Below are positions 32,377 through 53,719 of a DNA stretch of 64,000 nt, in pieces. Numbering within the stretch: the stretch's first letter is position 1; every line of letters starts with the position of its first letter. The stretch is from a virus. Taxonomy: Duplodnaviria > Caudoviricetes. The translations under genes were made by a program, and so were the position numbers. Location of the stretch: positions 160,001 through 224,000 of IMG/VR virus record IMGVR_UViG_3300049141_000098; one strand, written 5' to 3'. The notes under the pieces are model-generated. The model was not told the origin of the DNA. It worked only from the letters and a program-made list of their open reading frames with translations, and did no database searches.

Positions 32377-32385
32377 GAACTCGTC

Positions 32386-37451: not shown

Positions 37452-37502
37452 GCACTGGAAGATTCGGAACCGGATTGGAAGGCTCCGAATCTTCCCGAAC
37501 GT
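37452..37502 (-). repeat. Hairpin element A4
   Basis: GCACT-GGAAGATTCGGA..TCCGAATCTTCC-CGAACGT. Confidence 0.85.
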
Positions 37503-37519
37503 CACCGATCAGACCTGTG

Positions 37520-37849: not shown

Positions 37850-38085
37850 GTCTCATTCCTCTCCTTGAACCACTCTTCGGCATCCTGTCGGGCATCCTCC
37901 CGGAAGACCCGGTCAGGCCACCTGTTACTGCTCTTGCCTCGCATGGACGCGGGTACCTGGAAGGCGTATCCGCGTCGCCCCTCGACGACTAGGCACTTTG
38001 TGCCCTGCCCGTCCCGCAGCACGGGCCAGGTGTCGTACAGACTTCCCTCCCGCTTCTTCAGCGAGTCACCAAGGGTGATCTTCAT
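37846..38085 (-). CDS. Hypothetical protein
   Basis: ATG 38085 coupled. Confidence 0.7.
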   Translation of the reverse strand: MKITLGDSLKKREGSLYDTWPVLRDGQGTKCLVVEGRRGYAFQVPASMRGKSSNRWPDRVFREDARQDAEEWFKERNET

Positions 38086-38579
38086 TTCCCACCCTCCGCG
38101 ATTTCCTTGTGGATCAGCGCCCAGCCGTACGCCTTTGACTCGGGGTCGTAGTCGGCGTGATCGCAGCGCTCCCGCTCGGTCCACTCCTGACAGGGCATCC
38201 CATCCTCCCCGGCTCCGCAGACCGGCGGATGCATCTCGACGGAGACGATCGCCCACAGGCCCGGCTCTTCGAGGATGCGCTCCTCCAGGCCCCGGCCGAA
38301 GTGGCGGCGTCCGGCATCGAACACGAACAGCGATCCCCCCTCGGCCCACCCCGTGAGCGCCCGCCATCCGTTTCCGATCCCGTCCAGCGCGGACCGCTCG
38401 TGCGCTTCGAGCACGTCCGGCATGTCCCAGTCGCCCGACCAGTCAATGTTGATCGACTCTGGCGCGTAGTCCTCCAGCTTGGCCGGAGGGTACGGAGCCG
38501 TCTCGTACGTCCCGTCGGGCTTAACCAGGATCGGCAGCGCACTCGGTCCGTGCAGCACCTCGTCCAGCGTCTCGCTCAT
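38082..38579 (-). CDS. Hypothetical protein
   Basis: ATG 38579; W.AL.GW, WAIV.V pattern. Confidence 0.75.
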   Translation of the reverse strand: MSETLDEVLHGPSALPILVKPDGTYETAPYPPAKLEDYAPESINIDWSGDWDMPDVLEAHERSALDGIGNGWRALTGWAEGGSLFVFDAGRRHFGRGLEERILEEPGLWAIVSVEMHPPVCGAGEDGMPCQEWTERERCDHADYDPESKAYGWALIHKEIAEGGK

Positions 38580-38618
38580 GATCGTTTCATTCCCTTTCCA
38601 TTTGTCCGCGCCATACAG

Positions 38619-38656
38619 GCACTGGAAAGCGCGACCGTGTCGCGCCCTCCCGAACC
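38619..38656 (-). repeat. Hairpin element A5
   Basis: GCACT-GGAAAGCGCGAC CGT GTCGCGCCCTCC-CGAACC. Confidence 0.8.
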
Positions 38657-38668
38657 GGCATGCCCCGG

Positions 38669-38959
38669 TCAGTCCTCGTTTTCGTTGTCGTAGACGACCG
38701 GTAGCCGATCCCATGCCAGTCTGAGCATGTTCTCCAGGTCAACCACGATCGACCGCTTCCCGTACGTCCCCGCCCAGTCGGCGTCACTGTGCGCTTTGCC
38801 GAGCGTCATAGCGAACGACACCCCGTGTCCGTACTCCGGACCGTCGCCGTGCACTCCCGTCGAGAGGATCATGTATCGCTGATCCTCCGACTCGTAGTTG
38901 AGCGCGTCGTTCACCGACTCACTCAGCGTGACGTAGTCGCCCAGCACCTTGCTGCTCAT
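38669..38959 (-). CDS. Hypothetical protein
   Basis: ORF track. Confidence 0.75.
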   Translation of the reverse strand: MSSKVLGDYVTLSESVNDALNYESEDQRYMILSTGVHGDGPEYGHGVSFAMTLGKAHSDADWAGTYGKRSIVVDLENMLRLAWDRLPVVYDNENED

Positions 38960-38974
38960 CCGTCCCCCTTTCCG

Positions 38975-39274
38975 TCAGTCTTCGTCATCGGCGACCATGT
39001 CGTGCAGCTTCATCGCCTCGACCATGTCACCGAGCCGCACGAACATCCCGTCATCCCGCACCTCAGCGCTCTTGGGGATCACGCGCGTAGCCTGCACCGG
39101 CTCCGGAACCGTCACCATCTCGTCGTACGGCTCCGCGTTGCCGAACCGCGCTTCGTACTCCGCGTCCTGCATCTTGGGTAGTAGCTCTGCCGCCCAGTCC
39201 ACGTACTCCAGCGGCAGGGGCGGGAAGAAATTGCCCCGAAAATGCACGGTCAGTGCGGTACGTACGTCGATCAT
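38975..39274 (-). CDS. Conserved phage-type hypothetical protein
   Basis: L..H.R.NF.PP.P and MVEAMKL pattern. Confidence 0.75.
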   Translation of the reverse strand: MIDVRTALTVHFRGNFFPPLPLEYVDWAAELLPKMQDAEYEARFGNAEPYDEMVTVPEPVQATRVIPKSAEVRDDGMFVRLGDMVEAMKLHDMVADDED

Positions 39275-39359
39275 GCCTAACTCCCTTCCGTCAGGACCAC
39301 CCGGCCCCACGGAGCCGCACGGAGTTGCCCCCATGCCGCCCCGAAGTGCGATGTTCCGA

Positions 39360-39830
39360 CTACATCCACACCGGCACGAGTCGAACCGTCCGCTCCGGCG
39401 ATCCCTTGTACTCGATCAGGAACCGGCGAATTTCCCGCCAGTCCCGGTCGTGCTCGCATCCGGCGTTCCGCTCCAGTTCACCGCGCACCGTATCGAACAC
39501 GGCTCCTTCGAACCGGGGCGCGTCCCACAGCGCCCGGGTGATCCGGTGCACCGTCAGGTCAGCCGCCCGTGCCCGTTCCTGCGCCACGCCACAGAGCGAA
39601 CCAGGGATCACGTAGTGGCGGCCGATGCACACCCGGGGCTGGTCCTCGATCTCCTTGTGGAGAAGGTCCCGCAGGTGGCCGAGATGATCGGAGAGCCGGA
39701 TGTAGTGCGTCCAGTCCTCTTGCGGTGCATCCTCGTCCGGGCTGCCGGTCAGATCGGTCGCACCCCTCCGTGCCGCATTCCACAGCCACGTTTTCCCGGG
39801 CGGTAGGACGTACAGATACGTGTGCTTCAC
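39360..39830 (-). CDS. Hypothetical protein
   Basis: GTG 39830 coupled. Confidence 0.7.
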   Translation of the reverse strand: MKHTYLYVLPPGKTWLWNAARRGATDLTGSPDEDAPQEDWTHYIRLSDHLGHLRDLLHKEIEDQPRVCIGRHYVIPGSLCGVAQERARAADLTVHRITRALWDAPRFEGAVFDTVRGELERNAGCEHDRDWREIRRFLIEYKGSPERTVRLVPVWM

Positions 39831-40027
39831 TTCCCACCCTCCCGCTCGTCCAGCATCTCCTGGCCCAACTCCATGAGCTGACGCCCCAGCTTGACGGCCT
39901 CCTCTGGTGGAAGCTGAAGACTGCCGTCGGTCTTGCCGCTCGCCTTCTCCGTCGTGAGCAGGGAGACGTCTCCGCCACAACGGGCAAGCCACAACTCCCG
40001 TCCGTCCCTGGACTCTGGCACGCTCAC
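39827..40027 (-). CDS. Hypothetical protein
   Basis: ORF track. Confidence 0.7.
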   Translation of the reverse strand: MSVPESRDGRELWLARCGGDVSLLTTEKASGKTDGSLQLPPEEAVKLGRQLMELGQEMLDEREGGK

Positions 40028-40063
40028 GCTTCTCCCCTTTCCGTCCGTCTTCAGGGTTGTCCG

Positions 40064-40564
40064 TTACGCCGGGTCCCCAGCGTGCAGTACCGTCCCCTCC
40101 GGGACGCCTGTCGCTGACCAGCGCACCTGCGTGTCCTGGTCCCCGACCACGTGATAGAGCTGATAGCAGTACTCCTTGCCGTCCCGGTACTCGGCGAACC
40201 GCTCCGCGTATTCCCGAGCCATTTCGACCGTCGGGAAGGGAATGTTCCACGCTTCCGCGTGCCGGTAGTAGCCGCTTCCGCCGCCGATGATCGGCATGAT
40301 CCGGAATCGCTCGCCCTCCGGCGGCATGTCACCTTCGAAGAGCCATCCGTCCGTGGATCCCCAGCCGCGCGTCTTGGCGAACTCCCGGTCGGCCGATTCC
40401 CGCGTCTCGTGCTGCGTGACCTTGACTTCCCGTTCGTACCGGTGGCCGCAGCGCGGAGGCCATCCGCCCGGCGTCCGGTTCCATACCGGGCGCGGACCCG
40501 GGTCGTATCCCGGCTCCGTTTTCTCGCAGCACGGCTCCAGCACCATCACCGTGATCATCTTCAC
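40064..40564 (-). CDS. Hypothetical protein
   Basis: ORF track. Confidence 0.75.
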   Translation of the reverse strand: MKMITVMVLEPCCEKTEPGYDPGPRPVWNRTPGGWPPRCGHRYEREVKVTQHETRESADREFAKTRGWGSTDGWLFEGDMPPEGERFRIMPIIGGGSGYYRHAEAWNIPFPTVEMAREYAERFAEYRDGKEYCYQLYHVVGDQDTQVRWSATGVPEGTVLHAGDPA

Positions 40565-40806
40565 GCCTCTCGAACCTTGTGCTGCGTGTCAGCGTCCAGC
40601 ACCACGTTCGTCCCCTTGACCAGGACGTACGGCGTCCCGCCGTTCCCGTAGACCATGACGTAGACTCGCCGCCACACACCCAGATATTCGATCATGTGGG
40701 CCGTCGGGATCTTCCCGCCGTACCCGGTCACGGTGTGCCCGCTCACCGGCACCTCCGTGACCTTGACTCCCGTCACGCCCTCCGGGTCCGTGTACTCGAT
40801 ACTCAT
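40561..40806 (-). CDS. Hypothetical protein
   Basis: GYGGKIPT..M...G.WRRVY pattern. Confidence 0.75.
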   Translation of the reverse strand: MSIEYTDPEGVTGVKVTEVPVSGHTVTGYGGKIPTAHMIEYLGVWRRVYVMVYGNGGTPYVLVKGTNVVLDADTQHKVREA

Positions 40807-40822
40807 CCGCTTCTCCCTTCCG

Positions 40823-41314
40823 TCAGTCCCGAGTGTTGCGCAGCGCCATCAGTGCCGCTTGATCGTCCCGGCAGGCATGTACGGTCAGCTCACTGACTCC
40901 GACGTACTTCGCGAGGATGATGCACGCCCGCAGGTACTCCGCCGAGACGTCCGCCATCGGCCGCCCGCCCGCCGTGGTGTCGTCTGGCCCGTACCCCTGG
41001 TTTCGGGCGAACTCGGCCGCCCCATAGGCGCTCATCACCTGAGAGATCAGTTCGACCTCAAAGCGATCCCGTTCCCGGCCATCCCCCTGGCCCTTCTGCA
41101 CGGCCTTCCAGGCCCCCAAAACCCTTCCGTAGTGGCTGGACGCCTCGATGGCCACGTAACGCATGGGGTTGCCCAACGGAAGGCGCCCCCGCAGATCCCC
41201 CTCCGTCTCCGACATGGTCTGCGTCGTGACCCGCAACCACTGGTCGAACCCGTCCGCCTCCCGACCTCCCAGGGGGTTGCGCTTCCGGTCCGGCGTCTCC
41301 GTGAACAGCGCCAT
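40823..41314 (-). CDS. Hypothetical protein
   Basis: ORF track; SD. Confidence 0.75.
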   Translation of the reverse strand: MALFTETPDRKRNPLGGREADGFDQWLRVTTQTMSETEGDLRGRLPLGNPMRYVAIEASSHYGRVLGAWKAVQKGQGDGRERDRFEVELISQVMSAYGAAEFARNQGYGPDDTTAGGRPMADVSAEYLRACIILAKYVGVSELTVHACRDDQAALMALRNTRD

Positions 41315-41352
41315 GTTCGGTTCCTCTCCCTTTCCGTCTTCCGTGATCCCGC

Positions 41353-41736
41353 TCAGTGCTGCGGCTGACCGATCTCAGGCAACGGCCGCTCCCGGGGGAC
41401 TTCCCGGCCTTCCCGGCTGTAGCACTCGGCCACCCATTCCCGGACCGCGCGCATCTCCTCTGAGCCGACCCGCCAGGTCGGTTCGTCGCCCCACAGGGGG
41501 GTGGTTCCCGTCGGATCCGGCCCGTCCATGAACGTCGCGGCCGTCCAGTCCGTGACGAACTGGCCGACGACCGTAAACGGCGTTCCCGTTTCGGGGTGCC
41601 GGGCGGTGAATCGGTGGCGCAGGTCGAACCACAGAACACGTCCCGCCTTGTCCCTCTGGTGGTCCTCCGCCTCCGTGTCCAGCACCACCAGGAACGGAAC
41701 TCCCGTGACCCCGGCCGTCGTCCTCATGTGCAGCAT
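41353..41736 (-). CDS. Hypothetical protein
   Basis: ORF track. Confidence 0.75.
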   Translation of the reverse strand: MLHMRTTAGVTGVPFLVVLDTEAEDHQRDKAGRVLWFDLRHRFTARHPETGTPFTVVGQFVTDWTAATFMDGPDPTGTTPLWGDEPTWRVGSEEMRAVREWVAECYSREGREVPRERPLPEIGQPQH

Positions 41737-41830
41737 CCCGTTTCCCCTTCCCGTCGTTCCCGGCGAACCGCCGTGATCACAGAGGAGCGCGGAGTGGTCC
41801 CCGCGCTCCCCTGAAACCGGACGCTCCCCG

Positions 41831-42439
41831 TCAGACTGTCGGCCGATTGTTCGTGATCAGATCGATCATGGGATGATCGGCGTACTTGCCGGGTTCGGTG
41901 GCGAACGCCATCATCACGTCCTCCCCCTTCCGGTCGTTTACGATCCGGCGGAACTCCGCCAGGCTCACGCCCGTGTATGCCCGCGCGAACTGCACCGTGA
42001 CTTCGTGATCCAGTTCGATGCGCGCGACCGTCTCCGGCTTCCCGGTACTCCGGGCCATCGGGAACATCTCGGCCGTCCACATGATCTCGCGGGCGAGGCT
42101 GCACTCCCAGTGCCGTACCGAATCGTCGTAGAACTTGGCCTCCCCGTTCGCGTCACACCGGTTGAACCGGGACCGCCTGGAGAGCAGGGAGAGGAACCTG
42201 TCGCGATCGACCCCGTCCGCCCAGAACGCCTCCCACGTGGGCCGGATCCCGCGCACCGCCGCGCCGTTCGCGTAGCCGCTGGCCAGATGGGCGAACCGTC
42301 GCCACACCGTCACCGCGTTCTGTGATTCCTGGTTCAGGTAGCCCGGCTGTCCCGGCCCGGGGCGCCCGTCGTGCTTGCGCTTCGCGCTGGTCAGGTGGTC
42401 GGCCAGCAGCCCGTGAAATTCCGCCAGAGTACGTCCCAT
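41831..42439 (-). CDS. Hypothetical protein
   Basis: ATG 42439. Confidence 0.75.
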   Translation of the reverse strand: MGRTLAEFHGLLADHLTSAKRKHDGRPGPGQPGYLNQESQNAVTVWRRFAHLASGYANGAAVRGIRPTWEAFWADGVDRDRFLSLLSRRSRFNRCDANGEAKFYDDSVRHWECSLAREIMWTAEMFPMARSTGKPETVARIELDHEVTVQFARAYTGVSLAEFRRIVNDRKGEDVMMAFATEPGKYADHPMIDLITNNRPTV

Positions 42440-42461
42440 GGTCCCGTTTCTCCCTTTCCGA

Positions 42462-42761
42462 TTACGCCACCAGACCCGCGCGAATCGGGTCCGGCTCCCA
42501 GGTTTTTGTCTGTCCGTCATGGTGCGTGTACGTGACCGTGACGGACTCCACCCGCAACACCGTGTACCGGCCGGTCGAATCGGTCCGGTACGTGGTCGCG
42601 ACTTCCAGCTCAGTCCCGTTGCTCAGGTTGTTGCGCAGCCTCCCGGCCAGCAGGTCAGCGATGTTGTCGTCCGTCGCGAACCGCAGTGCGACGTACTCAC
42701 CCCACCCGCACTCATTACAGCGGCAGTCCCAAGGGTCGACTGCGATCAGTCGCACACTCAC
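42462..42761 (-). CDS. Hypothetical protein
   Basis: DPWDCRCNECGWGEY motif. Confidence 0.7.
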   Translation of the reverse strand: MSVRLIAVDPWDCRCNECGWGEYVALRFATDDNIADLLAGRLRNNLSNGTELEVATTYRTDSTGRYTVLRVESVTVTYTHHDGQTKTWEPDPIRAGLVA

Positions 42762-42778
42762 GATCCCGCCCTTCCGCG

Positions 42779-42997
42779 CTACTCGCGAAGCCCGCAGGCC
42801 CGCTTGAATTCCACGGCGTTGAAGGCCCTGTTGCGCTCCGTGAACAACCGGACGAACCGGTCGGCGACACCGTCAAGGGCGTCCATCGCTTCTCGGATGT
42901 ACATGCCTTCCACGGGGCCGTCGCTCAGCTCCCAAGGGTGTTGTTCGAGTTCTGCCCGAATCTCCCGGGCGACGTCCTCCGGCGTCAGTCCGTCCAT
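42779..42997 (-). CDS. Hypothetical protein
   Basis: A..F...F...N..FN...F..ACG pattern. Confidence 0.7.
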   Translation of the reverse strand: MDGLTPEDVAREIRAELEQHPWELSDGPVEGMYIREAMDALDGVADRFVRLFTERNRAFNAVEFKRACGLRE

Positions 42998-42999
42998 GG

Positions 43000-43413
43000 T
43001 CAGATCCCGTTGCTCTCGCGCTTGCCGTACGTGCCGACCAGGCCGATGGACAAGCGACACCCGCCGCATGTCACCCCGGCCAGAGCCGTACCCGACTCCC
43101 ACACAGCCAGATCCCGCCCCTGCGAGTCGGCGCAGACTCCGCGCGGAGCCTCCCCGTCCTCCTTGGGCAGCACCAGCGCGTGACGCCTGCCGTCCGTGTC
43201 CTGGCCGACGTGATGGATGCGGACCGTCGGTGCGTAGATGAACAGCGTGCCGCCGGTCTCGTAGTGCCTCCCACCGTTCGTATCGAACCAGAACGGCCGC
43301 CCTTCCGGGCTTGCCGACAGCGTGTCCAGCACGACCGCGCCACCGTCACTCGGCTTCAGGCTCCCGCGCGTGATCTCACCGATCTCGACGCGAACGGCTC
43401 CCATGCGTTCCAT
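43000..43413 (-). CDS. Hypothetical protein
   Basis: ATG 43413. Confidence 0.7.
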   Translation of the reverse strand: MERMGAVRVEIGEITRGSLKPSDGGAVVLDTLSASPEGRPFWFDTNGGRHYETGGTLFIYAPTVRIHHVGQDTDGRRHALVLPKEDGEAPRGVCADSQGRDLAVWESGTALAGVTCGGCRLSIGLVGTYGKRESNGI

Positions 43414-43421
43414 AGCGCTCC

Positions 43422-43721
43422 TCACTGACCCTTGACGGGGTTCGTCAGGGCCAGGTCCATCCCGTCGCCTGCTGCGGCGGACAGAACGACGTGCCGGGTG
43501 TCGTCGTGCATCCTGCCGTCTGTGTCGAGCAGACCGTAGCCGGACAGCACGCTCCCCAGGTTGCCGAACGGCAGGTGGCTGGGGTTGCGCGCGATCTGCA
43601 CCGCCTCGAACAGTGCCAGGGGGTGTGCGTCCCGCACGACCTGAAGGGTCATCAGGGTTGTGCGCACGGTCGGCTCCGCAACGCTGCTGCCATCCTTCAG
43701 TTCCAGCATTTCCATAGTCAT
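43422..43721 (-). CDS. Hypothetical protein
   Basis: ORF track. Confidence 0.75.
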   Translation of the reverse strand: MTMEMLELKDGSSVAEPTVRTTLMTLQVVRDAHPLALFEAVQIARNPSHLPFGNLGSVLSGYGLLDTDGRMHDDTRHVVLSAAAGDGMDLALTNPVKGQ

Positions 43722-43909
43722 TCCTCCCGCTCTGCAACCGCTTCGACCGTGGCCGTGATCATCACCTCGTACACGTCCACCGGCAGAGCCAGCCAGCGGG
43801 AATCCCCAGTCGGCCCCTCCGCCTTGACCCGGACCGTTTCGACCGGCCCTCCAGCCCCCTCCTTGAGCGCCCTACGCAACTCCCGCTCGACGTACTCTGC
43901 GTTCGTCAT
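43718..43909 (-). CDS. Hypothetical protein
   Basis: ATG 43909; VKAEGPTGDSRWL. Confidence 0.7.
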   Translation of the reverse strand: MTNAEYVERELRRALKEGAGGPVETVRVKAEGPTGDSRWLALPVDVYEVMITATVEAVAEREE

Positions 43910-43925
43910 GATCTGCCTCTCTCCC

Positions 43926-44105
43926 TTACTTCTTTCCGAGCAGGCCCGCGCGGTAGCCCTCGCGCCAGGCATCAGCGACCGCACCGCCTTGGTAGGCAAG
44001 CGGGATCTCCGGCGCCCCCGACCCTGGGTTTTCTCGCTTCCAGCGGCCCCACTTGCGACCGTTCGCCCGCGCGTCCTCAATGAGGCTGCGCCTCTGTTCG
44101 GGCAT
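43926..44105 (-). CDS. Small hypothetical protein
   Basis: ATG 44105; AWREGY tail. Confidence 0.65.
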   Translation of the reverse strand: MPEQRRSLIEDARANGRKWGRWKRENPGSGAPEIPLAYQGGAVADAWREGYRAGLLGKK

Positions 44106-44126
44106 TTTCCTCTCCCATCCGGTAAT

Positions 44127-44170
44127 GCACTGGAACGCTCCGGTCACCCTTCCGGAGCGTTCCCGAACGT
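44127..44170 (-). repeat. Hairpin element A6
   Basis: GCACT-GGAACGCTCCGG..CCGGAGCGTTCC-CGAACGT. Confidence 0.85.
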
Positions 44171-44180
44171 CACGGGATGA

Positions 44181-44513
44181 TCAGACGTACGGAGTCTCCC
44201 GGTACTCCGCGAGCGCTTCCCGGATACGGTTCTGGCAGCCGGACGTGGACGGGGTGTACTTGACGTCCGGCACCACCCAGCCACCGTCCCGGCTGTCGAT
44301 CCAGGCGACCGGCGTCCCGTAGTGGTAGACGACGTGCGAGGCGTGCTCGATGTCCTTCCGCCACTCTTCGGGCAGACGGTTCGGGTCACCGGTCGGGCTG
44401 GCTCCGAGCTGTGCGGCCCCGCGCGGGAGCCTCCCGTCCGATCCGCCGCGCCCCATGTTGATCACGTGCTGGAGTTCCTGCCACGTTCCGGTACCGATCG
44501 TCATTCCGAACAT
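44181..44513 (-). CDS. Conserved phage-type hypothetical protein
   Basis: VVYHYGTPVAW..W.VP..KY..STS..Q pattern. Confidence 0.8.
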   Translation of the reverse strand: MFGMTIGTGTWQELQHVINMGRGGSDGRLPRGAAQLGASPTGDPNRLPEEWRKDIEHASHVVYHYGTPVAWIDSRDGGWVVPDVKYTPSTSGCQNRIREALAEYRETPYV

Positions 44514-44575
44514 GTCCCGTTTCTCCCTCTCCGTCTTTCGCTATCTCTTCGCAGATTCTAGTGATCAGATGACGC

Positions 44576-44585
44576 GACCTAGGCC
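44576..44585. promoter_or_regulatory. Palindrome C8 GACCTAGGCC
   Basis: Intergenic; TAGAAT -10-like hexamer downstream on minus strand. Confidence 0.75.
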
Positions 44586-44610
44586 AATCGACATCATCGT
44601 GACCCGTTCG

Positions 44611-45150
44611 TTACCGGGGCGGCAACTTCGCCAGCCCGACGAGCACCTGACCGATCTCGTCGTCGTACTCCTCCGCGATCATGAGGCGGCTCTCGTACTC
44701 CAGGACCCCGGAGGGGAAGTCGCAGGTCCAGTCGTCCCCATCGCCCGGGTAGCCGGTCGCCATCGACGTGTCGACGCTGTAGCGGTCGCTCAGCTTGGAC
44801 GAGAGGGATACGCCCCACCCGTTCGACAGGACCAGGCGCATGACCGAACGCGGTTCGTCCCCCTCGTAAGCGGGCTCCCACTCCCACGGACCAATCACGG
44901 TGGCTCCGTAACGCAGGGACAGGCGTTCCCCCGCGTTCGTCAGCTCCCGCGTCATCCACTCCCGGTACGTCATCCCGTCCGTCTCGACGTCGAACCGGGC
45001 AGACTCGACGTCGTACCCCTGCACGATGCACCAGCCGCGCATGTATCCCTGCGCTTCCGCCGCGCTCCCGGCGGGGATCTCCGCCCGCTTGTTCACCGTC
45101 CCGTACATCGGGTGACTCGCCGTGGCTTTGATGCCGTAGATCTTGGTCAC
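44611..45150 (-). CDS. Hypothetical protein
   Basis: ORF track; LSNGWGVS pattern. Confidence 0.8.
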   Translation of the reverse strand: MTKIYGIKATASHPMYGTVNKRAEIPAGSAAEAQGYMRGWCIVQGYDVESARFDVETDGMTYREWMTRELTNAGERLSLRYGATVIGPWEWEPAYEGDEPRSVMRLVLSNGWGVSLSSKLSDRYSVDTSMATGYPGDGDDWTCDFPSGVLEYESRLMIAEEYDDEIGQVLVGLAKLPPR

Positions 45151-45229
45151 GCCCCTTTTTTCCTTTCCGTCACGCTCCCGAACCGGGAACCCACGGAGTA
45201 CGTCCCGCAGCGCGGAACGCCCCCGAAGA

Positions 45230-45406
45230 TCACCGCCCCCTGGGCTTCAAGGCCTCACGCATGGCGAGCACCAGGAAGACAAACCCAATACTGATGAACA
45301 CCTCCCCCAGGGCTACGTGCACGGTTGCGTCCACCAGGTAGACGCCGCCGAGCAGATAGAAGATCGTCCCGGCGCACATGGCGTGGAATCTTCTGTCTTT
45401 GCCCAT
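45230..45406 (-). CDS. 58-aa two-TM membrane protein
   Basis: Read by eye: MGKDRRFHAMCAGTIFYLLGGVYLVDATVHVALGEVFISIGFVFLVLAMREALKPRGR. Confidence 0.65.
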   Translation of the reverse strand: MGKDRRFHAMCAGTIFYLLGGVYLVDATVHVALGEVFISIGFVFLVLAMREALKPRGR

Positions 45407-45434
45407 CGCTCCCCGTTCCTACCCGTACGCCGGA

Positions 45435-45809
45435 TCAGACCGTGCGGCGTGTTGAATGCTGGTCTCGGGGGTCGATCGCCGGAAGATCCCGCAGCACGGC
45501 TACCGCCTTCCGCGCCGCCTTCAGCACCACATCCGACGTCCCAGCAGACTCCCCACCGTTCACGACCGGCGTCGACTGATCCGTGCGCCACGGCGTCCCG
45601 TCGTACGTGACGTCACGCAGCGGGACCGTCTCCCGAATCGTGATCATGTCGATCCGGCCGGTGTCGGCCTTCCACATGAGGGAGATCCCGCGCTTGTTGG
45701 CCAGCCACACCCGCGCAACCTGGTCCCCCTTGTGCGGGCCCGTGAACGGCCCTTCCACCGCCGCATTGAACTCCAGCGACAGATGACCGGCCACCTGCAA
45801 AGCGTCCAT
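45435..45809 (-). CDS. Hypothetical protein
   Basis: ORF track. Confidence 0.75.
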   Translation of the reverse strand: MDALQVAGHLSLEFNAAVEGPFTGPHKGDQVARVWLANKRGISLMWKADTGRIDMITIRETVPLRDVTYDGTPWRTDQSTPVVNGGESAGTSDVVLKAARKAVAVLRDLPAIDPRDQHSTRRTV

Positions 45810-45867
45810 TCCCGTCCCTCCCTCTCCGTTACTTCGCTGGCAAATCCGCGCTTTGACTTCCGAACGG

Positions 45868-46176
45868 TCAGCCCTGCCGGTCGCCCATGGGCGGATACGT
45901 CGCGCCCGGGGCGGGCTCCCGCTTGTGCCACGGGGTGTCGTCCCCAGTCGTCGCGCTTCCGTCTGCGAGATCCTGCGCCCGGACCGCGTAGCCGTCCCGG
46001 TACGCCCGGCACAGGATCCCGTCCGGCCCGTCGGCGTACATGAATGGCACGTCCGTCACCTCCGTGGCGAACGGCTCCCGGTAGGTTTCGCTGTAGTCGT
46101 GCGCCCGGTCGGCGTCGTCCCGTCCGTGCTCCCACGCCTCCGCCGCGTCCGCGTTCTGCGCGAACTCCGACGGCAT
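45868..46176 (-). CDS. Hypothetical protein
   Basis: ATG 46176 (GTG 46191 alternative). Confidence 0.7.
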   Translation of the reverse strand: MPSEFAQNADAAEAWEHGRDDADRAHDYSETYREPFATEVTDVPFMYADGPDGILCRAYRDGYAVRAQDLADGSATTGDDTPWHKREPAPGATYPPMGDRQG

Positions 46177-46219
46177 CCCTTTGCTGGTCACCCTGGTCCC
46201 CTTTCCGTTGTCCGTGCCG

Positions 46220-46277
46220 GGCGGCACTCCCGGGCAACCGGTCTCACGACCGGTTGCCCTAGGGCGTCTCCCGTCAG
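46220..46277 (-). repeat. Hairpin element B4
   Basis: GGCGGCACTCCC-GGGCAACCGGTC TCAC GACCGGTTGCCC-TAGGGCGTCTCCCGTCAG. Confidence 0.85.
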
Positions 46278-46456
46278 GTACAGGCCCCGTGCGTTGTACG
46301 TCCGCGCGGGACCGTCCCGGAGGGGTCGGCCAGCATCGCGCGGGGCGTGATGTTGCTTCCGAAGTACACGCCCTTCCCCCGGTAGTCGTTCGTCGCGTCA
46401 CCCCGGTCAGGGTCCTGCGCCGCCCGATGCCGCGCCATCTTCACCGTGTGCGTCAT
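46274..46456 (-). CDS. Small hypothetical protein
   Basis: ORF track; bracketed by B4/B5. Confidence 0.65.
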   Translation of the reverse strand: MTHTVKMARHRAAQDPDRGDATNDYRGKGVYFGSNITPRAMLADPSGTVPRGRTTHGACT

Positions 46457-46485
46457 GTCCCGTTTTCCCTTTCCGAATGGTGTCA

Positions 46486-46547
46486 GGCGACACCCCCGGG
46501 CGGTCGGAATGTCTCCCGGCCGCCCTAGCGCGACTCCCTGACGTCAG
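46486..46547 (-). repeat. Hairpin element B5 (divergent)
   Basis: GGCGACACCCCC-GGGCGGTCGG..CCGGCCGCCC-TAGCGCGACTCCCTGACGTCAG. Confidence 0.75.
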
Positions 46548-46894
46548 AGTGCGTTGACTTGATCCCGGTAACCGCCCGCGCAGTCGATCATTTCCGGATC
46601 GATCCGGTCCTGTTCGACGTTGAACATTCCGCGTGCCGTCTCCTCGAACGACGTACGGACCAGGGTTGCCAGGCGCCTCCGCCCGTTACCGTGATCCCGC
46701 CCCTCCCGCAGTACCGTCCACGTGTAGACGCGTCCGTCGGTCATGAGCATCACGCCACGCGCGAGACACTGATCACCGGGGCGCATCCGGAACTGGATGC
46801 TCTGCGACACCTTCCCTTCCACGTACTCACCGCGCCCGAAGCTGTAACCGTTCGGTCCGTACGGTGCTCCCTGGTCCCAGAACGCTTCCGTCAT
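46544..46894 (-). CDS. Hypothetical protein
   Basis: ORF track. Confidence 0.75.
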   Translation of the reverse strand: MTEAFWDQGAPYGPNGYSFGRGEYVEGKVSQSIQFRMRPGDQCLARGVMLMTDGRVYTWTVLREGRDHGNGRRRLATLVRTSFEETARGMFNVEQDRIDPEMIDCAGGYRDQVNAL

Positions 46895-46917
46895 ATCTCC
46901 CGCTCTCCCTTCCGTTC

Positions 46918-46927
46918 GGCCTAGGCC
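46918..46927. promoter_or_regulatory. Palindrome C9 GGCCTAGGCC
   Basis: Intergenic; 6 nt downstream of TAGCAT on minus strand. Confidence 0.75.
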
Positions 46928-46936
46928 ACGAGGATG

Positions 46937-47278
46937 CTACCGCATCCGCCCGACGCCCGCGAAGGTTCCGTCAGCGACCGTCCGACGCAGCCACGCATCC
47001 CGCAGGGTCTCCAGGGTGCCGAGATCCCCGTAGCTGTGCTCGATCCCGTCCGCCGAGATCAGCGTGACCTGAGCGGCGAAAACGGACACCCACTCAATGG
47101 CCACGCACGTGATACGCCGACCGGCATACCGGTAGCCCGACACGCGGATCGCCGCGCCGTTGATCTTCCGGGTCGGCAGCCCTCCCATGATCCGGAGCTG
47201 TCCGACCCCGTCGTTCGCAACGGCCCCCGTCCCGGATTCCGTCGCGTGATCGCTGGGCTTGTCCATCGTGACACCCAT
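46937..47278 (-). CDS. Hypothetical protein
   Basis: ORF track. Confidence 0.65.
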   Translation of the reverse strand: MGVTMDKPSDHATESGTGAVANDGVGQLRIMGGLPTRKINGAAIRVSGYRYAGRRITCVAIEWVSVFAAQVTLISADGIEHSYGDLGTLETLRDAWLRRTVADGTFAGVGRMR

Positions 47279-47392
47279 GTCCGTTCTTCCCTTCCCGAAC
47301 TCCCCTGCGAACGCCTTTGCGTCCGTCGCGGCAAGCAGGCTGGAGCGCCCTTCGGCTCACCCCCGAAGGGCGCTCCCGTCCACCGGCCCCGA

Positions 47393-47803
47393 CTACTTCT
47401 TGATCTTGTAGCCCATGGACAGACAGTCGGCCGACGCCGTGACCGTGGCGTACGAGATCACCGTGTTGTGGTTCCGGTAACGGTCGTACGCCATGTCGAA
47501 CACGAACTCCCGCACGCTCGCACGGATCCCGGACTTCACAGCGGCCTTGCACACCGCGCGACGCTGCGCCGCACCCTCCCGGCTGCCGTCACCCAGCCAC
47601 AGCAGGGCACCGTCCCGGAACGTCCCGGTCTTCAGGCACTTCCGGTCATACTCCGGCATGCCCCGGTAGCCGGTCTCACAGATGGACTTCGCCGCCTTGA
47701 CCGTCCCGCGCGCCGGAGCTGCGTCCGCCGGGGGGTTGAACGCCATCAGCGCGAGGAGCCCCGCGAGGACGGTCAGGATGCTGCGGCCCTTGATGTTGTT
47801 CAT
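47393..47803 (-). CDS. Secreted protein with Sec signal peptide
   Basis: MNNIKGR-hydrophobic-PPADA/A; four Cys. Confidence 0.75.
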   Translation of the reverse strand: MNNIKGRSILTVLAGLLALMAFNPPADAAPARGTVKAAKSICETGYRGMPEYDRKCLKTGTFRDGALLWLGDGSREGAAQRRAVCKAAVKSGIRASVREFVFDMAYDRYRNHNTVISYATVTASADCLSMGYKIKK

Positions 47804-47902
47804 GATTGTTTCCTCTCACTTTCCGTGTCTCGTCCCTCACTCCCGGACGATTCGGCCCGGACCCGGGGCATCCCCGAGCCGGACCGGACCGCACGGCCGT
47901 GA

Positions 47903-48523
47903 TCAGTAACCCTCGCGCCCCTGCGCTACCGCGCTTCCGTCCTCGTAGAACCGGACGTCATAGGGGTTGCGGTTGACGTCCCGCAGCGCTTGTTCACACT
48001 CCGCCGGTCCCTGTCCGCACTCCGTGTAGGCCTGCCAGGACAGGTAGGCGCCCTCGATGATCAGTTCCCGCGCGGCGTCCCGGTCCGGGTCACCCGCACC
48101 CGCCGGAGTCCCCACCACCGTGACTGGCAGCACCGGCCGGTCCGGCGCATCCGGGTTGTTGCCGAACGTCCCGAGCAGCCACGCGACCATGAGCAGCACG
48201 GCCACGCATCCGGCACCGATCACGCCGACCACCACCCGTTCCGACGTCCGGAGCTGTCCGCTCCCGTCCACCGGCATGGTTGCCCACGGTTCCCGCGCGT
48301 CCGTCTCCCGGTCCTGCCCGGCCGCCGTACCGGCCGCATCCCGGATCAGTTCGTTGACGATCTCGGCGAACTCCGGCCCGTCGATCTTGCCGAGCACGTA
48401 CCGGCCCGCCGCGCGGTCGAAGATCTCGCGGAACGATTCCCGCACGTCCCTGCCGTTCACCCGCTCGATGTGCGGAGCCAGCCGACGACGCTCCGCCGTG
48501 ATCACGTTCTGCTGCTGCGTCAT
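47903..48523 (-). CDS. Single-pass membrane protein
   Basis: VVVGVIGAGCVAVLLMVAWLLG helix. Confidence 0.8.
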   Translation of the reverse strand: MTQQQNVITAERRRLAPHIERVNGRDVRESFREIFDRAAGRYVLGKIDGPEFAEIVNELIRDAAGTAAGQDRETDAREPWATMPVDGSGQLRTSERVVVGVIGAGCVAVLLMVAWLLGTFGNNPDAPDRPVLPVTVVGTPAGAGDPDRDAARELIIEGAYLSWQAYTECGQGPAECEQALRDVNRNPYDVRFYEDGSAVAQGREGY

Positions 48524-48585
48524 GTCCCGTTTCCCCTTCCCGGCGGGGCCCCGGTGCGTCCCGGGGCCCCTTGTGTGCGTGCGAG

Positions 48586-50457
48586 TTACTTACCGGCCCT
48601 TGCCAGACCCTTGCGCGCAGCCTCCTGCGTGCGCTTGTCCGCCTTGCGCGGGGCGGGCTTGCGCTCACCCTTCGGCGTGAACTCCGGGCGAGGCTCGTGC
48701 GAAACCGTCCCGCCCACGTTGCCATCAGCGAACGATCCGACCGACGCGACCTTGCGAGACTCCCGACGCTCCGTTCCCGTGAGCCGGGACCCCTCGGCAA
48801 TCTCCCTGGCCTTGGACGCTTCCCGCGCTTCCTCGCGGCCCTTGAGGTATGCGCCTACCTTTGTGGAGTGACGCCGCCGCTGGGCCCGGCTCATGCCCTT
48901 GTGGGCAATGTCCTTGGGTGCCTGGCACAGTGGGCAGATTTCACCGGACACCCCGGGGTCAACTCCCGGGCGAACCGTCGCGGGAAGGCTCATGGTTCCC
49001 GCCTTACCGACCCATCCGCCGGGCCGGACCGGAGCCATGTTCTGACTCCCGGTCGTCGCGGCACCGTCCACCGAACCGTGATCCCGCTGACCCTTACCGG
49101 CGTCCGCACCCGTCCCGCGCGGGGTCACCTTGCGCTCGCCCTTGCCGTCCGCTCCCGCCCGGCGGAACGACTCACCCGGCACGGTGTGAATCGACATGAT
49201 CCACACGTCGCCCTTCTTGCGCTGGACCCGCTTCAGCTCAACGCCACGCCGACCGCACCCCTTGGGACCGTCGCACGTGATCGTCCCGCCCGTCGCGTCC
49301 TTGACCACCTTGCGCGACCGGCCGCACCGGGTCTCGGCAACGCGCCGCTTGTCCGCCGCCGCAGGGTCGCCCGGAATGGTCCCGTGTTCCACCGTGTCCA
49401 TGGACTTTGAGGACATGTGCGGGTTCGCGGGAGGGTTCACCCCGTACTCAAAGTGCGAACCGATCCGGAAGTCGTCGTCTGCCACCGTGTCCGCGAGGGG
49501 GATGTACGCGCGGCACTCCGGGCACTTCCCGTGCGTCCGCTCCGGGTTGACGATCTCCACCGGGCCCTTACCCGCGCACCCTCGATAGTCCGTGTCACCC
49601 GCACCATTCGTCCCGGACCACTGCCCCCGTCGCACCGCCGGATCCGGAAGGGACGCCACCTCCGCCGGTACGGGGTGACCGGCCGCGTAGTAAGCGGCAA
49701 CCTGGGCCCGCATCTCAGCGTGCGTCAGACCCGTGACCCCGGTCGTCTCGTCCATTCCGGGCAGGGTCGGGGCAGACTCGTCCCGCACCGCCGGAACGGT
49801 CGGACGCTTGTGACGACGCATGCCACCCTCGCGACTTACCGCGATGATCCGGTCGCAACCTTCCCCCGGGCACTTCCCAGAGTGCTTGCCGTTGTAGTCG
49901 TCCGGCACGCTCACGGTGTGGTCATCGCGCTGTACACGCGTCCCAGCCATCGGAGGCTCACCGGTCCCGTCACACCGGTCGTTCTGCGCGTCCCGCGCCG
50001 CCCGCTGTTCGGTCAGCCGCGCCCGCTCCCGGTCAACCGCCACCGTGCGCCGCGCCTTACCCTGCGCGCCCTTGGACGCCTTGACGATTTCCCGCACTTC
50101 CTCACGGGCAATCTCCCGCACTGCCGGAGCAATGTCCGCGCCCAGCTCCGGGCCACCCTCGGCACCCTCCGCGTACTGGGCATACTTAGCCTCACGCGCG
50201 GCCTCAATGTCGTTCTTCCCGCCGGTCGTGGCCAGCCACTTGACGCACCGGGCACACATTCTGTCGCCGGTGAACTTTTCCGTCAGACGCTCCGAGTCGA
50301 CACCCTTTCCGCCGCACGCCGTCCCAATCGTCCCGCCCGTCGCAAGCGGGTCATTCATCGCTCCCGCCGGAATCAGCAGCGCGTGACCCGCTCCGCTTTC
50401 GTACCCGTACATACGGGGGGTGTCATCGGCCGTGAGTGCCACAAACAGACTGGTCAT
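48586..50457 (-). CDS. 623-aa protein with repeated Zn-ribbon-like modules
   Basis: Three C.G.G...C(P)..C...H modules plus CARC and CPLC; basic tail. Confidence 0.8.
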   Translation of the reverse strand: MTSLFVALTADDTPRMYGYESGAGHALLIPAGAMNDPLATGGTIGTACGGKGVDSERLTEKFTGDRMCARCVKWLATTGGKNDIEAAREAKYAQYAEGAEGGPELGADIAPAVREIAREEVREIVKASKGAQGKARRTVAVDRERARLTEQRAARDAQNDRCDGTGEPPMAGTRVQRDDHTVSVPDDYNGKHSGKCPGEGCDRIIAVSREGGMRRHKRPTVPAVRDESAPTLPGMDETTGVTGLTHAEMRAQVAAYYAAGHPVPAEVASLPDPAVRRGQWSGTNGAGDTDYRGCAGKGPVEIVNPERTHGKCPECRAYIPLADTVADDDFRIGSHFEYGVNPPANPHMSSKSMDTVEHGTIPGDPAAADKRRVAETRCGRSRKVVKDATGGTITCDGPKGCGRRGVELKRVQRKKGDVWIMSIHTVPGESFRRAGADGKGERKVTPRGTGADAGKGQRDHGSVDGAATTGSQNMAPVRPGGWVGKAGTMSLPATVRPGVDPGVSGEICPLCQAPKDIAHKGMSRAQRRRHSTKVGAYLKGREEAREASKAREIAEGSRLTGTERRESRKVASVGSFADGNVGGTVSHEPRPEFTPKGERKPAPRKADKRTQEAARKGLARAGK

Positions 50458-50511
50458 GATCTTCCCGCTTTCCGTATCCGCGCCGCGCTTTTCGCGGCGT
50501 CTGCGATTTTC

Positions 50512-50697
50512 TTACTGCTCGACGATGTGCCGGGCGTCACTGCCCCATGCGCTACCGCGCACCCATGCCGCACTCGCCGCGTAGTCACCCAAACCGGGCC
50601 GCCGGTAAATCCGGCCGGTTTCGCTCCGGTACTCAATCGTCCCGGACTCCTTGACGATCACCGTTGCGCCATCCCGCAATGCGAGCGTAAGAGTCAT
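50512..50697 (-). CDS. First ORF of leftward block, hypothetical
   Basis: ATG 50697 after CGGAAAGGAAAAG. Confidence 0.65.
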   Translation of the reverse strand: MTLTLALRDGATVIVKESGTIEYRSETGRIYRRPGLGDYAASAAWVRGSAWGSDARHIVEQ

Positions 50698-50819
50698 CCC
50701 GCTTTTCCTTTCCGAAGCCTCCCCATGCGGAGGGCGAAACGGACACAGCTCACCCGTAATAGCGTCACGCAGGTTCTTTGCCTGCTGCCTACCGGACGTG
50801 AGTTGTCCGTTCGTGCTCA

Positions 50820-51460
50820 CCGCACGTGAGCGATAAGGGGGCGAACCGTGCGTCGTCCAGTGGAAAGCGTCCCGTTTATCGGGTCGTCTGTCCGTGCGTC
50901 GCTATCAGCGTTCGCCCCCTCCTCATGCAATCCGGTCCCGTAGGACCGGGCACGGGGCGCTAAGCGTTACCCGTGCGTCGCCGGGGGGAGTTTCTGAGGC
51001 TCCCCGTATCCGGCCGGTACCGTCGCACGTCACCCCGGTCAACCCCACGGGGGATTAGACCCGTGCCCGGAGAGTGCGTGATCATCTATGCCGTCCTCGC
51101 ATAGTGCGTTTGGTAACTCGCACCCGGGGTGAAACGGGTTCCGCTACGGACTGACTATTTCGACACGTGTTCCCGAATGCATTCCCAGGTTTCACCGCGT
51201 GGCTTGCGGATGGACTCCCTGACAAGTGGCCCGTACTTACGTGCGCCGTAACTCGCGGAGGCTGGACTAACTGACTTGACACGCTTTCCCATGACATCCC
51301 CGGATTCCCCCGCCGCGCAGGTTGCGGCTGTAAGGCATTCCGGCGAGTGGCCACGTACTCCCGTGCGCCATACCCCCGACTGACGGAAGGTTTACCCCTC
51401 CCCCAGGTGCGAGCGCCCACCGTTTCCGGCCGTGGTGGACAGTGCCGTTTGCGCCTCCCG
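50820..51460 (-). ncRNA. Candidate large structured RNA/leader with tandem duplicated domain
   Basis: Nested inverted repeats, C(UACG)G tetraloop on minus strand, repeat units 51113-51247 and 51248-51369; no credible ORF. Confidence 0.6.
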
Positions 51461-51744
51461 CGCTACCCGGTCAACCCGGGCGTTTCGCGTTCGGCTCCGA
51501 GAATCTCAAGGAACCCCATTCGGAGTTGCGAGCAACGAGACTGCCCGCGCTTCCGTCCGGCCCGCTCCCGCCCCATCGTCGTCCGGCGAACCGGTGCGTC
51601 AGAGCGAATGCGAGTGCTTGTGCTGTGCGCCCCGCGCTGCGTCCCGTAGGCGCTGCGTCGTGGCGACAACGAGAACATTGGCAGAGATGGCTGCCATTGC
51701 GTAAGCGAACAGCGCGAGCAACGGGTCTCCCGATTTGCAAACTC

Positions 51745-52497
51745 GCAGGTCAGAGCGTTGTAGCGAAGTTGATGTTGGATCCCATATCTCACGACCACAT
51801 GCACCCTGACCTGCGAAGAAGACAAGTTTGGTAACGAACAGATAACGGCCTAGGCCACACGGTATGACCTGCGACGATGCGACAAAGGTTTTTGTTTGTG
51901 CAGGTCAGAGAGGTCCCAAACTTCGAGGTCTCGCGAGTGAAACAGACAGAACGGACAAAAATTGACCAACATTTACGAGTGCTGGGGGGTATGCAAACGT
52001 CAGTGGAAAAGAGTTTCCAGAGCTGAGTGTGACCCAAGTCACACGACAATCGTCTCAGCAGTGACCAAACCGGACAGGTGCGGGGAGGGTTCCGGGCGAG
52101 TGAAAGGGGGGCGTCCCGATTCTCAAAACCAGCACTTGACCAGCAACAACACGCGTGACGTACGCGTATGTCCAGTTTGGTATGTCTGTCTATGTATGTA
52201 GTGGAAAGAAATGGAAAGTGGGATAAGGGCCTTACGCTCTGTATGGGATTGGAAGTGCTGGAATTTCTCTCGCCGGAAACCTGTACCGGACGTCAGAAAC
52301 ATGCAGGTCAGAGGCGTGTCCCGAATGTCGGAATCAGCGCTGATCATGCTGCTGAGCTGCGGGAATGCGACGTGATGACCAGGGCGCAGCACTCGGCTTG
52401 TGAGACACGCTGTCAGCAAAAGCGGAATAGCAAACACCGCAGGTCAGGCAGGGTGCGACTTGTGCTGTCTGGCGTACTGATCATGTGTCTGACCTGG
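51745..52497. repeat. GCAGGTCA iteron cluster
   Basis: Exact copies at 51745, 51807(rc), 51865(rc), 51900, 52303, 52439; variant at 52490. Confidence 0.75.
51847..51856. promoter_or_regulatory. Palindrome C10 at putative main leftward promoter
   Basis: Minus strand TTGTCG..TACCGT-GT-GGCCTAGGCC; -35/-10 spacing short (15 nt). Confidence 0.7.
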
Positions 52498-53460
52498 GGA
52501 TATGCCAGCCCTACGCGCGCGCGTGCGCTCTCCTGTCTCCCGCTCGGCCTGTCCCGAATGTCTGATACGCGACACATTGTGTGGAGTCCCGGACGCCATA
52601 GCCATACGGGGTAGGGGTATGTAAGAGATCTTGAGAGGGAGAGGTTCGAGCAGTGAGGTGGGTGGGGATGCTCGAAGGTTTGGCCAGTTCAGGGCGCAGG
52701 GTGCTGGCCAGACAGGGGACGTGACGAGACGAGACGTCTCGGAAGTGGTGACCAGGTGCACGCACGTGCGCGCGACGCACGATGCGGGCAGGCATGCGCG
52801 CGTGCCAGGCGCAGGCAGGCACGCGCGCGCGTTGCGGGCACGTTCGCGCTCGACGTTTCTCGATATCGCAGCGTGCCAGCAATGGCGACATGCGGCGCGC
52901 CTTTGTCGAGCGCCCAATGGGAGGCATGACGAGAATGGTGCGCAGCAATGCAAGAGGCCAGGCAGGGCAGGCAATGTGAGGCAGAGGGAAGTGAGCGGAA
53001 ATGCTGGAATGTCAAAGCCTCTTTCGCTGCTTTATCTCGCATTCTGTTTTGTGTAAGTCGCTGCTACACATCACACCTAGTCTGACCAGCAATGACAGGA
53101 GAGGCAGGCAGGGAAGCAGGAGGGAAAAGAACTGGAAAGGAAAGGAGTCTCGCCAATGCTCACGACTATCGCCCTATGTCAACAAAGCAGGAAAGGCAGG
53201 GCAGAAGAATGCAAGAGACAAGGCAGAGGACAAGGCAAAAGATATGCAGGGAAAAGGAAGGGGAAAGGTCTGGCTATCTCGGCAGCAATCAAAGGGATAT
53301 GAACAACTCTCTATGTCACGCCAATGCACAAGCCCTATGCGTACGAATGCATGCATGAACAGGAGAGGAATGGAAGGCAAGCGAGTGCGAGGGAAGCAGC
53401 GGAGAAAATCAGCAGACAACTCGAAAGGAATTCGAATTGAAAGATGCACTATGCAGAAAA
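52150..53460. other. Non-coding block with alternating purine-pyrimidine tracts and purine-skewed segment; possible terminus/packaging/origin region
   Basis: ACGCGCGCGCGTGCGC at about 52513, GC/GT tracts 52757-52850, A/G-rich plus strand 53090-53460. Confidence 0.5.
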
Positions 53461-53719
53461 CCAATTCTCTATAGCTATTTGGAAATGGGGCCCGGGTTAG
53501 GACTGCATGTCCGTCTACGCGTGGGCCCCGTGGGCAGTGTCCACAGCACCTCTCGATGCAGGAAATCATCCAGGAAGCGACAGACGGTGAATCCGAGTGC
53601 CAGAAAAATCCGCCGTCTGCTGCACACGTGGGCGCCCGGTGGGCTTACTTTAGTTTCATGCGAGACCGGCCCGTCAAACTACAAGATCCTTTTAGTTTGT
53701 TCTGCGTTATCGTAGGGAG

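Follow-up and report, generated by a model that had tools for sequence, protein, structure and literature searches.

A conserved non-coding RNA of about 1 kb with two paralogous arms, located beside the terminal-repeat region in jumbo Streptomyces phages of the cluster-BM type

The locus and its neighborhood

The DNA analyzed here, referred to as the window, is a stretch of 64,000 nucleotides (positions 160,001 to 224,000) of the 259,646-bp virus record IMGVR_UViG_3300049141_000098, which belongs to the Caudoviricetes. The window contains a leftward arm of genes encoded by the minus strand. The first gene of this arm (50512–50697) encodes a protein of 61 aa and the second one (48586–50457) encodes a CxxC-rich protein of 623 aa. 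Neither protein belongs to any Pfam or PHROG family. Among 14 loci searched, 12 have a homologue of the 623-aa protein downstream of the RNA described below, the exceptions being the short loci L047 and L050, and the 61-aa protein was detected in 4 of the 14. The 623-aa protein contains at least five CxxC pairs as well as Lys/Arg-rich stretches. Its Atlas model is of low confidence (pLDDT 0.51) and provided no usable match.

Upstream of these genes lies a conserved, structured, non-coding RNA. It would extend on the minus strand from about 51740, where its 5′ end is probably located, to 50698. A conserved GC-rich hairpin (50717–50735, minus strand), recognized in the sequence and in the alignment, is located just 5′ of the ribosome-binding site of the first gene. 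No terminator-like site was found between the RNA and the first gene, no sigma-70-like promoter was recognizable in the region 50300–52400, and no tRNA genes adjoin the RNA. An open reading frame of 112 aa (51082–51420, minus strand) covers the two repeated units of the RNA. It was rejected as a protein-coding gene because the open frame is not kept in the relatives, most of which have 1–7 stops in every frame. In the alignment of the relatives, no conserved open reading frame was found across the RNA.

In cluster-BM-like jumbo Streptomyces phages, the RNA borders on the terminal-repeat region, and it seems to continue into the leftward early arm. In the genome of Satis, the RNA heads the genes gp337–gp235, more than 100 genes that are all leftward and small, and lies ~0.7 kb inside the right terminal repeat, which has a length of 1,049 bp (PMC6687918). 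Two segments of the window, 52295–52361 and 53362–53515, match the two ends of the Satis terminal repeat. They belong to a low-GC stretch (0.50–0.58) at ~52260–53500, the ends of which match positions 34–100 and 913–1067 of the Satis genome. Thus, the physical genome end is probably located just to the right of the RNA, and the IMG/VR contig is probably circularly permuted, with the physical ends in this stretch. The open reading frames listed at 52168–53474 may be spurious.

In the first-pass annotation, made from the sequence alone, the element was proposed to head a long block containing terminators. The RNA is indeed upstream of the leftward block and co-oriented with it. Terminators, however, are not enriched there: 9 canonical terminators, one of them on the coding strand, were found in the downstream block 31000–50700, versus 8.1 expected. 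No Pfam-level phage RNA polymerase (Rpb2 domain 6) and no sigma-70 region 2 were found in the genome, so transcription by the host polymerase is likely. A search for T7-type polymerases also gave no match; its own controls matched nothing either, which makes this search uninformative.

Inverted copies of the motif CTGACCTGC are located directly upstream of the RNA (51745–51816), outside its fold. Counting the CTGACCTGC and GCAGGTCAG motifs in both orientations, five of the seven exact copies in the window fall into the region 51745–52447, versus 0.84 expected. The cluster includes a perfect 11-bp inverted repeat (51743–51753 with 51806–51816). The sequence of the CTGACCTGC motifs is kept in all relatives without compensatory change, which suggests protein-binding or promoter elements at the DNA level. 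The copies directly upstream of the RNA are a candidate promoter or operator region, and the cluster probably consists of protein-binding or promoter elements of the early region. Another short element, the palindrome AUGGCAGCCAU (51687–51697, minus strand), is located upstream of the main structured region, within a nearly invariant GCAATGGCAGCCAT block, and is kept in almost all relatives. It may serve as a protein site or mark the 5′ end of the RNA.

Relatives, paralogous arms, and fold of the RNA

A region with ~70% identity to the RNA was found in five phage-collection records, namely those of the Streptomyces phages Satis, Kradal, Quantum, EhyElimayoE, and Frankenweenie. There is no annotated feature beneath the match in any of these five records, and the annotations of Satis and Frankenweenie show no gene further upstream than the last one of the leftward arm. 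With pattern scans, IMG/VR contigs (168–251 kb) and 12 contigs from soil or rhizosphere metagenomes were also obtained. In total, 18 distinct sequences, 50–99% identical, were obtained from Satis and Frankenweenie (both cluster BM), IMG/VR contigs, and soil metagenomes. In each genome, the RNA is encoded at one locus only. The nucleotide identity of the RNA to its counterpart in Satis (~70%) is comparable to that of the better-conserved genes of the leftward arm.

Other candidates from the scans were discarded. The TACAGSCGCRACCT... pattern was found at 32 loci of viral contigs, and nhmmer matched the RNA only in L007, L012, L016, L037, and L039. At the remaining loci, the model of the repeated unit had no match or one below 20 bits, and no match to either half of the RNA, 5′ or 3′, was found. 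Six contigs having only the 21-nt AAACGCAC...ACGG pattern are unrelated to the RNA. The pattern scan of bacterial genomes yielded 32 hits, all scoring below 20 bits with the unit model, and these hits were thus attributed to chance.

Two abutting paralogous units (51113–51369, minus strand) form the center of the larger structured RNA. The ordered sequence blocks, for which this segment was initially described as a tandem repeat, are present in both units. The repeat itself was therefore retained; the limits first given to the units are off by ~8 nt from those of the structural units, which are closed by basal stems. With the latter limits, the first unit, or arm 1, occupies 51257–51377 and the second unit, or arm 2, occupies 51143–51252, both on the minus strand. 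Arm 1 is supported by the covariance model of the unit (R1), the pair counts, and its basal stem, and arm 2 by R1, the cross-profile matches, and its basal stem. The two arms (121 and 110 nt) share 84 identical positions. An HMM built only from the arm-1 orthologues of nine phages matched arm 2 at E = 1.5e-9, and the reverse HMM, built for arm 2, matched arm 1 at E = 1e-11; neither HMM had any further match in the 64-kb window. In a scan of the whole virus record, R1 found exactly two copies of the unit, arm 1 (126.5 bits) and arm 2 (95.6 bits). The arm-1 orthologues resemble each other (82% identity between the window and Frankenweenie) more closely than the two arms do, which places the duplication before the divergence of these phages. 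A degenerate third unit had been suspected at 51370–51455, but with the unit model no match to this region was obtained, even with a threshold of E ≤ 1. Instead, it comprises the 5′ strand of a long-range helix, P0, together with a small hairpin, H1.

The RNAs belong to two architectural groups. Both units are present in group A, which includes the window, Frankenweenie, and seven other sequences. Group B, including Satis and five others, has one unit and a different second domain. The group B units were left out when R1 was built, and R1 detects them at E-values from 1e-9 to 1e-5. Since arm 2 is exchanged for another domain in group B, the tandem arrangement itself is not essential. In group B (L002:1902–2238, L004:3052–3382, and others), the single unit is carried by a long extra stalk, and a multi-hairpin sub-domain is found in place of arm 2; 92 pairs were predicted for this fold, 38 of them with compensatory changes, in only six sequences.

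The fold of the unit was calculated with RNAalifold for 17 units and includes 24 pairs. Standard pairs occupy 96.2% of the cells, versus 24–46% when the 3′ partners are slid by 1–3 columns. Half of the pairs (12 of 24) are compensatory, that is, changed on both sides. The observed values were reached by none of 500 shuffles. Each arm is an irregular rod, consisting from base to tip of the basal stem, a 13-nt asymmetric loop on the 3′ strand, the helix P1, an AGUAC/GGAA internal loop, the helices P2–P4, and P5, a terminal hairpin with a 7-nt loop. The CCGC/GCGG terminal hairpin, pointed out early for its differing 7-nt loops, is present in both arms and covaries in the relatives, being replaced by CCAC/GUGG, AUCAC/GUGAU, or GCGC/GCGC. 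Likewise, the pairing of GCACG with CGUGU through a G-U pair, said to be possible on the minus strand only, corresponds to P1. The first pair of this helix is a G·U conserved in 16 of the 17 units, and P1 is thus complete on the minus strand only. The 13-nt loop on the 3′ strand, between the basal stem and P1, is conserved and contains GUYAGU. A CUUACAG loop is found in arm 1 and is missing from arm 2.

In the internal loop between P1 and P2, a near-invariant AGUAC strand is located opposite GGAA. These strands occupy 51355–51359 and 51286–51289 in arm 1 and 51233–51237 and 51170–51173 in arm 2 (minus strand). GUACG is invariant in the 17 units, and the A preceding it is found in at least 90% of them; GGAA is also invariant, with its flanking C-G pair kept in 17 of 17. 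The loop E, or sarcin-ricin (bulged-G), motif is formed by 5′-AGUA-3′ opposite 5′-GAA-3′, with flanking Watson-Crick pairs. The internal loop of the units has this sequence and may adopt a loop-E/sarcin-ricin-like bulged-G structure in three dimensions. In a metagenomic relative (L048:2947–3087), arm 1 has an insertion of ~20 nt between P2 and the GGAA strand. The insertion forms its own hairpin (CAGACC...GGUCUG), so this spot tolerates an extra helix. Two kinds of loop contacts were sought by eye, complementarity between the conserved unit loops and other conserved single-stranded blocks and a link between the arm-1 P5 loop and upstream GCAGGU repeats; they were dropped because the loop sequence is not conserved across the phages.

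Both arms have basal stems of their own. The arm-1 stem is formed by 51377..51367 with 51266..51257. In the window it pairs GGGGG-UA-UGG with CCA-G-CCUCC, and in the relatives it is represented by GGGAA/UUCCC, GGGGGA/UCCCCC, or GGGAGA/UCUCCC. The arm-2 stem is formed by 51252..51246 with 51149..51143, being GUUACGG/CCGUAGC in the window and GUUGCGG/CCGCAGC elsewhere. The pairing of the cognate ends, with −12.7 kcal/mol for arm 1 and −9.2 kcal/mol for arm 2, is more favorable than that of the non-cognate ends, with −9.7 and −6.1 kcal/mol, respectively. A small hairpin predicted by RNAalifold at 51380..51367 was rejected, and the covarying arm-1 basal stem was preferred.

The arms are enclosed by P0, a long-range closing helix of 13 bp between its 5′ strand (51401–51413) and its 3′ strand (51117–51129) on the minus strand. 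An extra CCCG/CGGG arm, previously assigned to one of the units, proved to be unconserved; its bases are the 3′ strand of P0, pairing with 51413..51401. Compensatory changes in P0 were found at 5–6 positions in group A. In group B, P0 lies at the same place and differs entirely in sequence, pairing CUGAUAGGCC with GGCCUAUCAG or, in Satis, CCCAAC with GUUGGG. The small hairpin H1 (51386–51400, minus strand), with five pairs conserved in nine sequences, is stacked on P0. In the predicted fold, P0 encloses H1 and both arms, forming a four-way junction in a domain of ~300 nt. For this domain, 94.8% pairing and 28 compensatory pairs were found in the nine phages of group A, and 92.3% pairing and 42 compensatory pairs in the six phages of group B. 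The slid controls had 29–46% pairing and 3–17 compensatory pairs. Thus, the units do not form the self-contained tandem domain that was originally described; they are two arms of one closed junction within a multi-domain RNA.

The ~300-nt domain is the core of this non-coding RNA of ~1.0 kb. The global RNAalifold consensus for 15 sequences, covering 51565 to 50793 (~800 nt), has 180 pairs, including 70 compensatory ones, compared with 40.5 ± 3.7 compensatory pairs in whole-RNA shuffles. Pairing over the whole RNA is 89%, versus 36–46% with slid partners. The 5′ domain (51465–51565, minus strand) contains a covarying hairpin, 51548..51531, and an invariant hairpin, 51515..51493; further covarying helices were found upstream, as far as ~51720. 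The 3′ domain (50793–51106, minus strand) is a series of covarying helices in the consensus fold. The first of them are 51104..51086, 51078..51024, and 51072..51033, followed by 51016..50976, 51005..50985, and 50971..50954, and finally by 50944..50838, 50826..50812, and 50809..50793. In most relatives, among them L001, L012, L013, and L047, the 5′ domain is separated from the GC-rich repeats by an extra 80–130 nt. The insert is without counterpart in the window and L037, and it carries its own covarying helices.

The fold is also specific to one strand. In 7 of 7 alignment blocks, the minus strand folds more stably than its reverse complement, and the ratio of G·U to A·C is 282:86, versus 210:114 for the reverse complement. 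The covariation among relatives bears out the view of a structured, RNA-type element on the minus strand. The units are real, evolutionarily maintained arms of an RNA, and the RNA structure is almost certainly a real functional one.

Comparison with known RNA families

The RNA belongs to no known family. With the 4,227 models of Rfam 15 and gathering scores as the membership criterion, no match was found in the whole 64-kb window. At E ≤ 10, the region and seven homologous loci gave only chance miRNA matches of ~20 bits. The initial impression that no known consensus fits the element thus holds for Rfam at either threshold. The internal anatomy of the RNA, including the paralogous arms, the basal stems, P0, and the loop-E-like motif, and its two architectural groups are added here.

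The put elements of phage HK022 mediate processive antitermination by the nascent RNA, acting in cis and as RNA only (PMC9378689). Similarly to putL and putR, the RNA described here is a phage RNA that would head early transcription, is co-oriented with a long operon, and has two similar stem-loop modules; it could possibly act in cis on the host polymerase without phage proteins. On the other hand, put is ~70 nt long, consists of two simple stem-loops, and belongs to a lambdoid coliphage, whereas the arms described here have 110–121 nt and five helices each and lie inside an RNA of ~1 kb, so the RNA does not have the size of a put-type element. A put element lies just downstream of the early promoter and ahead of an operon with terminators; the RNA described here heads the leftward arm, with no promoter recognized and canonical terminators at chance level. 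There is no similarity to put in sequence or model.

EAR and conAn2 are long leader RNAs with which the polymerase reads through terminators in long operons (PMC8191782). conAn2 has 260–600 bp and needs the upstream-encoded protein ConAn1 for long-distance action (PMC8191782). Both are long structured leader RNAs ahead of long operons, as the RNA described here would be. In contrast to it, they are found in Firmicutes plasmids and Bacillales; no equivalent of ConAn1 was identified in this phage, EAR has only ~120 nt, and no Rfam match to EAR was found.

GOLLD, ROOL, and OLE are large ornate RNAs that form homo-oligomers (PMC12286853). The RNA described here is likewise very large and has many conserved helices, and GOLLD and ROOL are often borne by phages or prophages. 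With 180 pairs over ~800 nt, it is in the range of large ornate RNAs, i.e., more than 500 nt with many maintained helices. The covariance models of GOLLD, ROOL, and OLE do not match it. Many GOLLD and ROOL loci adjoin tRNA genes, whereas this RNA is in a leader position and not adjacent to such genes.

Tandem glycine riboswitches are similar in that a leader carries a pair of adjacent, homologous structured domains. A tandem riboswitch has two homologous aptamers followed by an expression platform; here, two homologous arms are present and no such platform follows. In addition, there is no model match, both arms are enclosed by one closing helix, and group B does without the second arm. The pRNA of phage phi29, for which a separate Rfam family exists, is an RNA of ~174 nt that assembles into a ring on the packaging motor and is made early from a gene adjoining the genome end. 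Both it and the RNA described here are structured phage-encoded RNAs with a gene beside the genome end; pRNA is far shorter, and its model does not match.

Possible functions of the RNA

The position and orientation of the RNA favor a cis-acting leader, as does the absence of a terminator between it and the first gene. Action on the host polymerase without proteins is an established solution for the long operons of phages and plasmids, as with put (PMC9378689) and with EAR and conAn2 (PMC8191782). That the RNA is the leader of the early arm seems probable. Our best guess for its function, proposed tentatively, is that it acts in cis similarly to put, EAR, and conAn2 and secures the expression of the early arm. 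In this model, the host RNA polymerase would make the RNA among the first transcripts of the infection. No phage proteins would be needed, and the RNA would ensure in cis that the very long early arm is expressed. Most likely, it would render the elongation complex resistant to termination, as for HK022 put, EAR, and conAn2, and the conserved internal loops of both arms would be the contact surfaces. Antitermination specifically is a reasonable guess from position alone, and we consider it possible with considerable doubt. Since the downstream arm has no excess of canonical terminators, they lend no support to a need for antitermination.

The main rival to the cis-acting leader is a large ornate non-coding RNA, either free-standing or processed, that acts in trans like GOLLD, ROOL, or OLE. 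In size and complexity, the RNA resembles the large ornate RNAs, which makes this a strong rival, although we would call it possible rather than probable. Having ~1 kb and ~180 pairs, the RNA greatly exceeds put, EAR, and conAn2 in size and complexity, and its size fits a free-standing ornate RNA at least as well. Its closed multi-arm domain with invariant internal loops, its single copy at a fixed place in each genome, and the absence of matches to any cis-regulatory family point in the same direction, and the homo-oligomeric GOLLD, ROOL, and OLE provide precedents (PMC12286853). Possible roles of a trans-acting RNA are RNA-only assembly, a scaffold, or an early decoy for a host factor or defense sensor. 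On the other hand, the 3′ end of the RNA has no terminator-like site and is directly followed by the first gene of a co-oriented operon, and the locus is not beside tRNA genes, unlike many loci of GOLLD and ROOL.

With similar reserve, we suggest that the RNA may represent a new class, an ornate phage RNA of ~1 kb with duplicated arms that, made from the DNA end, would be the earliest product of the infection and would function purely as RNA. Such an RNA might assemble itself into a particle, act as a decoy for a nuclease, polymerase factor, or immune sensor of the host, or directly re-program the host polymerase over an early arm of more than 100 genes. If the RNA alone does re-program the host polymerase or block a host factor, this would be a new kind of takeover by jumbo phages, preceding any phage protein. 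To our knowledge, beyond rRNA, RNase P, introns, OLE, GOLLD, and ROOL, there are few large, intricately folded RNAs in bacteria and phages, and every newly found large ornate RNA that we are aware of has opened new biology. The carriers Satis and Frankenweenie are cultured, publicly available phages with tractable Streptomyces hosts. In addition, the location of the RNA, heading the early arm and beside the terminal repeat, is well defined and suggestive, and its secondary-structure model is well supported, so that its function is directly testable.

Control of the early arm by a ligand sensor with one or two aptamers, i.e., a tandem riboswitch, is unlikely. The two homologous domains, their invariant internal-loop nucleotides, and the location upstream of genes agree with a sensor; however, no riboswitch family matched, and P0 encloses the arms and is followed by ~400 nt of other conserved structure, not by an expression platform such as a terminator or a structure sequestering the ribosome-binding site. 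Moreover, arm 2 is without the CUUACAG loop and is absent from the phages of group B.

It is quite unlikely that the RNA is a transcribed replication element, such as a structured pre-primer at an origin near the genome end, similar to ColE1 RNA II. The locus is near the terminal repeat and beside the clustered CTGACCTGC repeats, which could bind an initiator, and the cumulative GC skew turns at the RNA. This turn coincides with the switch of gene orientation and with the probable physical end, so the skew says little about an origin, and nothing links the RNA to replication proteins.

Hairpins formed in the DNA itself, as in a packaging, injection-stop, or terminase site, would account for the closeness to the terminal repeat, and T5-type phages have repeat-rich non-coding regions near their ends. 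Such a DNA-level element is nevertheless very unlikely in view of the strand asymmetry (the excess of G·U over A·C, the conserved G·U of P1, and the better fold of one strand), the AGUA/GAA loop of RNA type, and extensive compensatory change as expected of a single-stranded fold.

Still less probable is a self-cleaving or self-processing ribozyme: the complex fold does have invariant unpaired nucleotides, but no Rfam ribozyme family matched and there is no indication of a processing site. Finally, a decayed, functionless DNA duplication, which the first-pass annotation had named as the alternative, explains the repeat itself and nothing more; its probability is negligible, as it is contradicted by the covariation, with orthologous arms kept in nine phages and the pairing of both copies preserved by compensatory changes.
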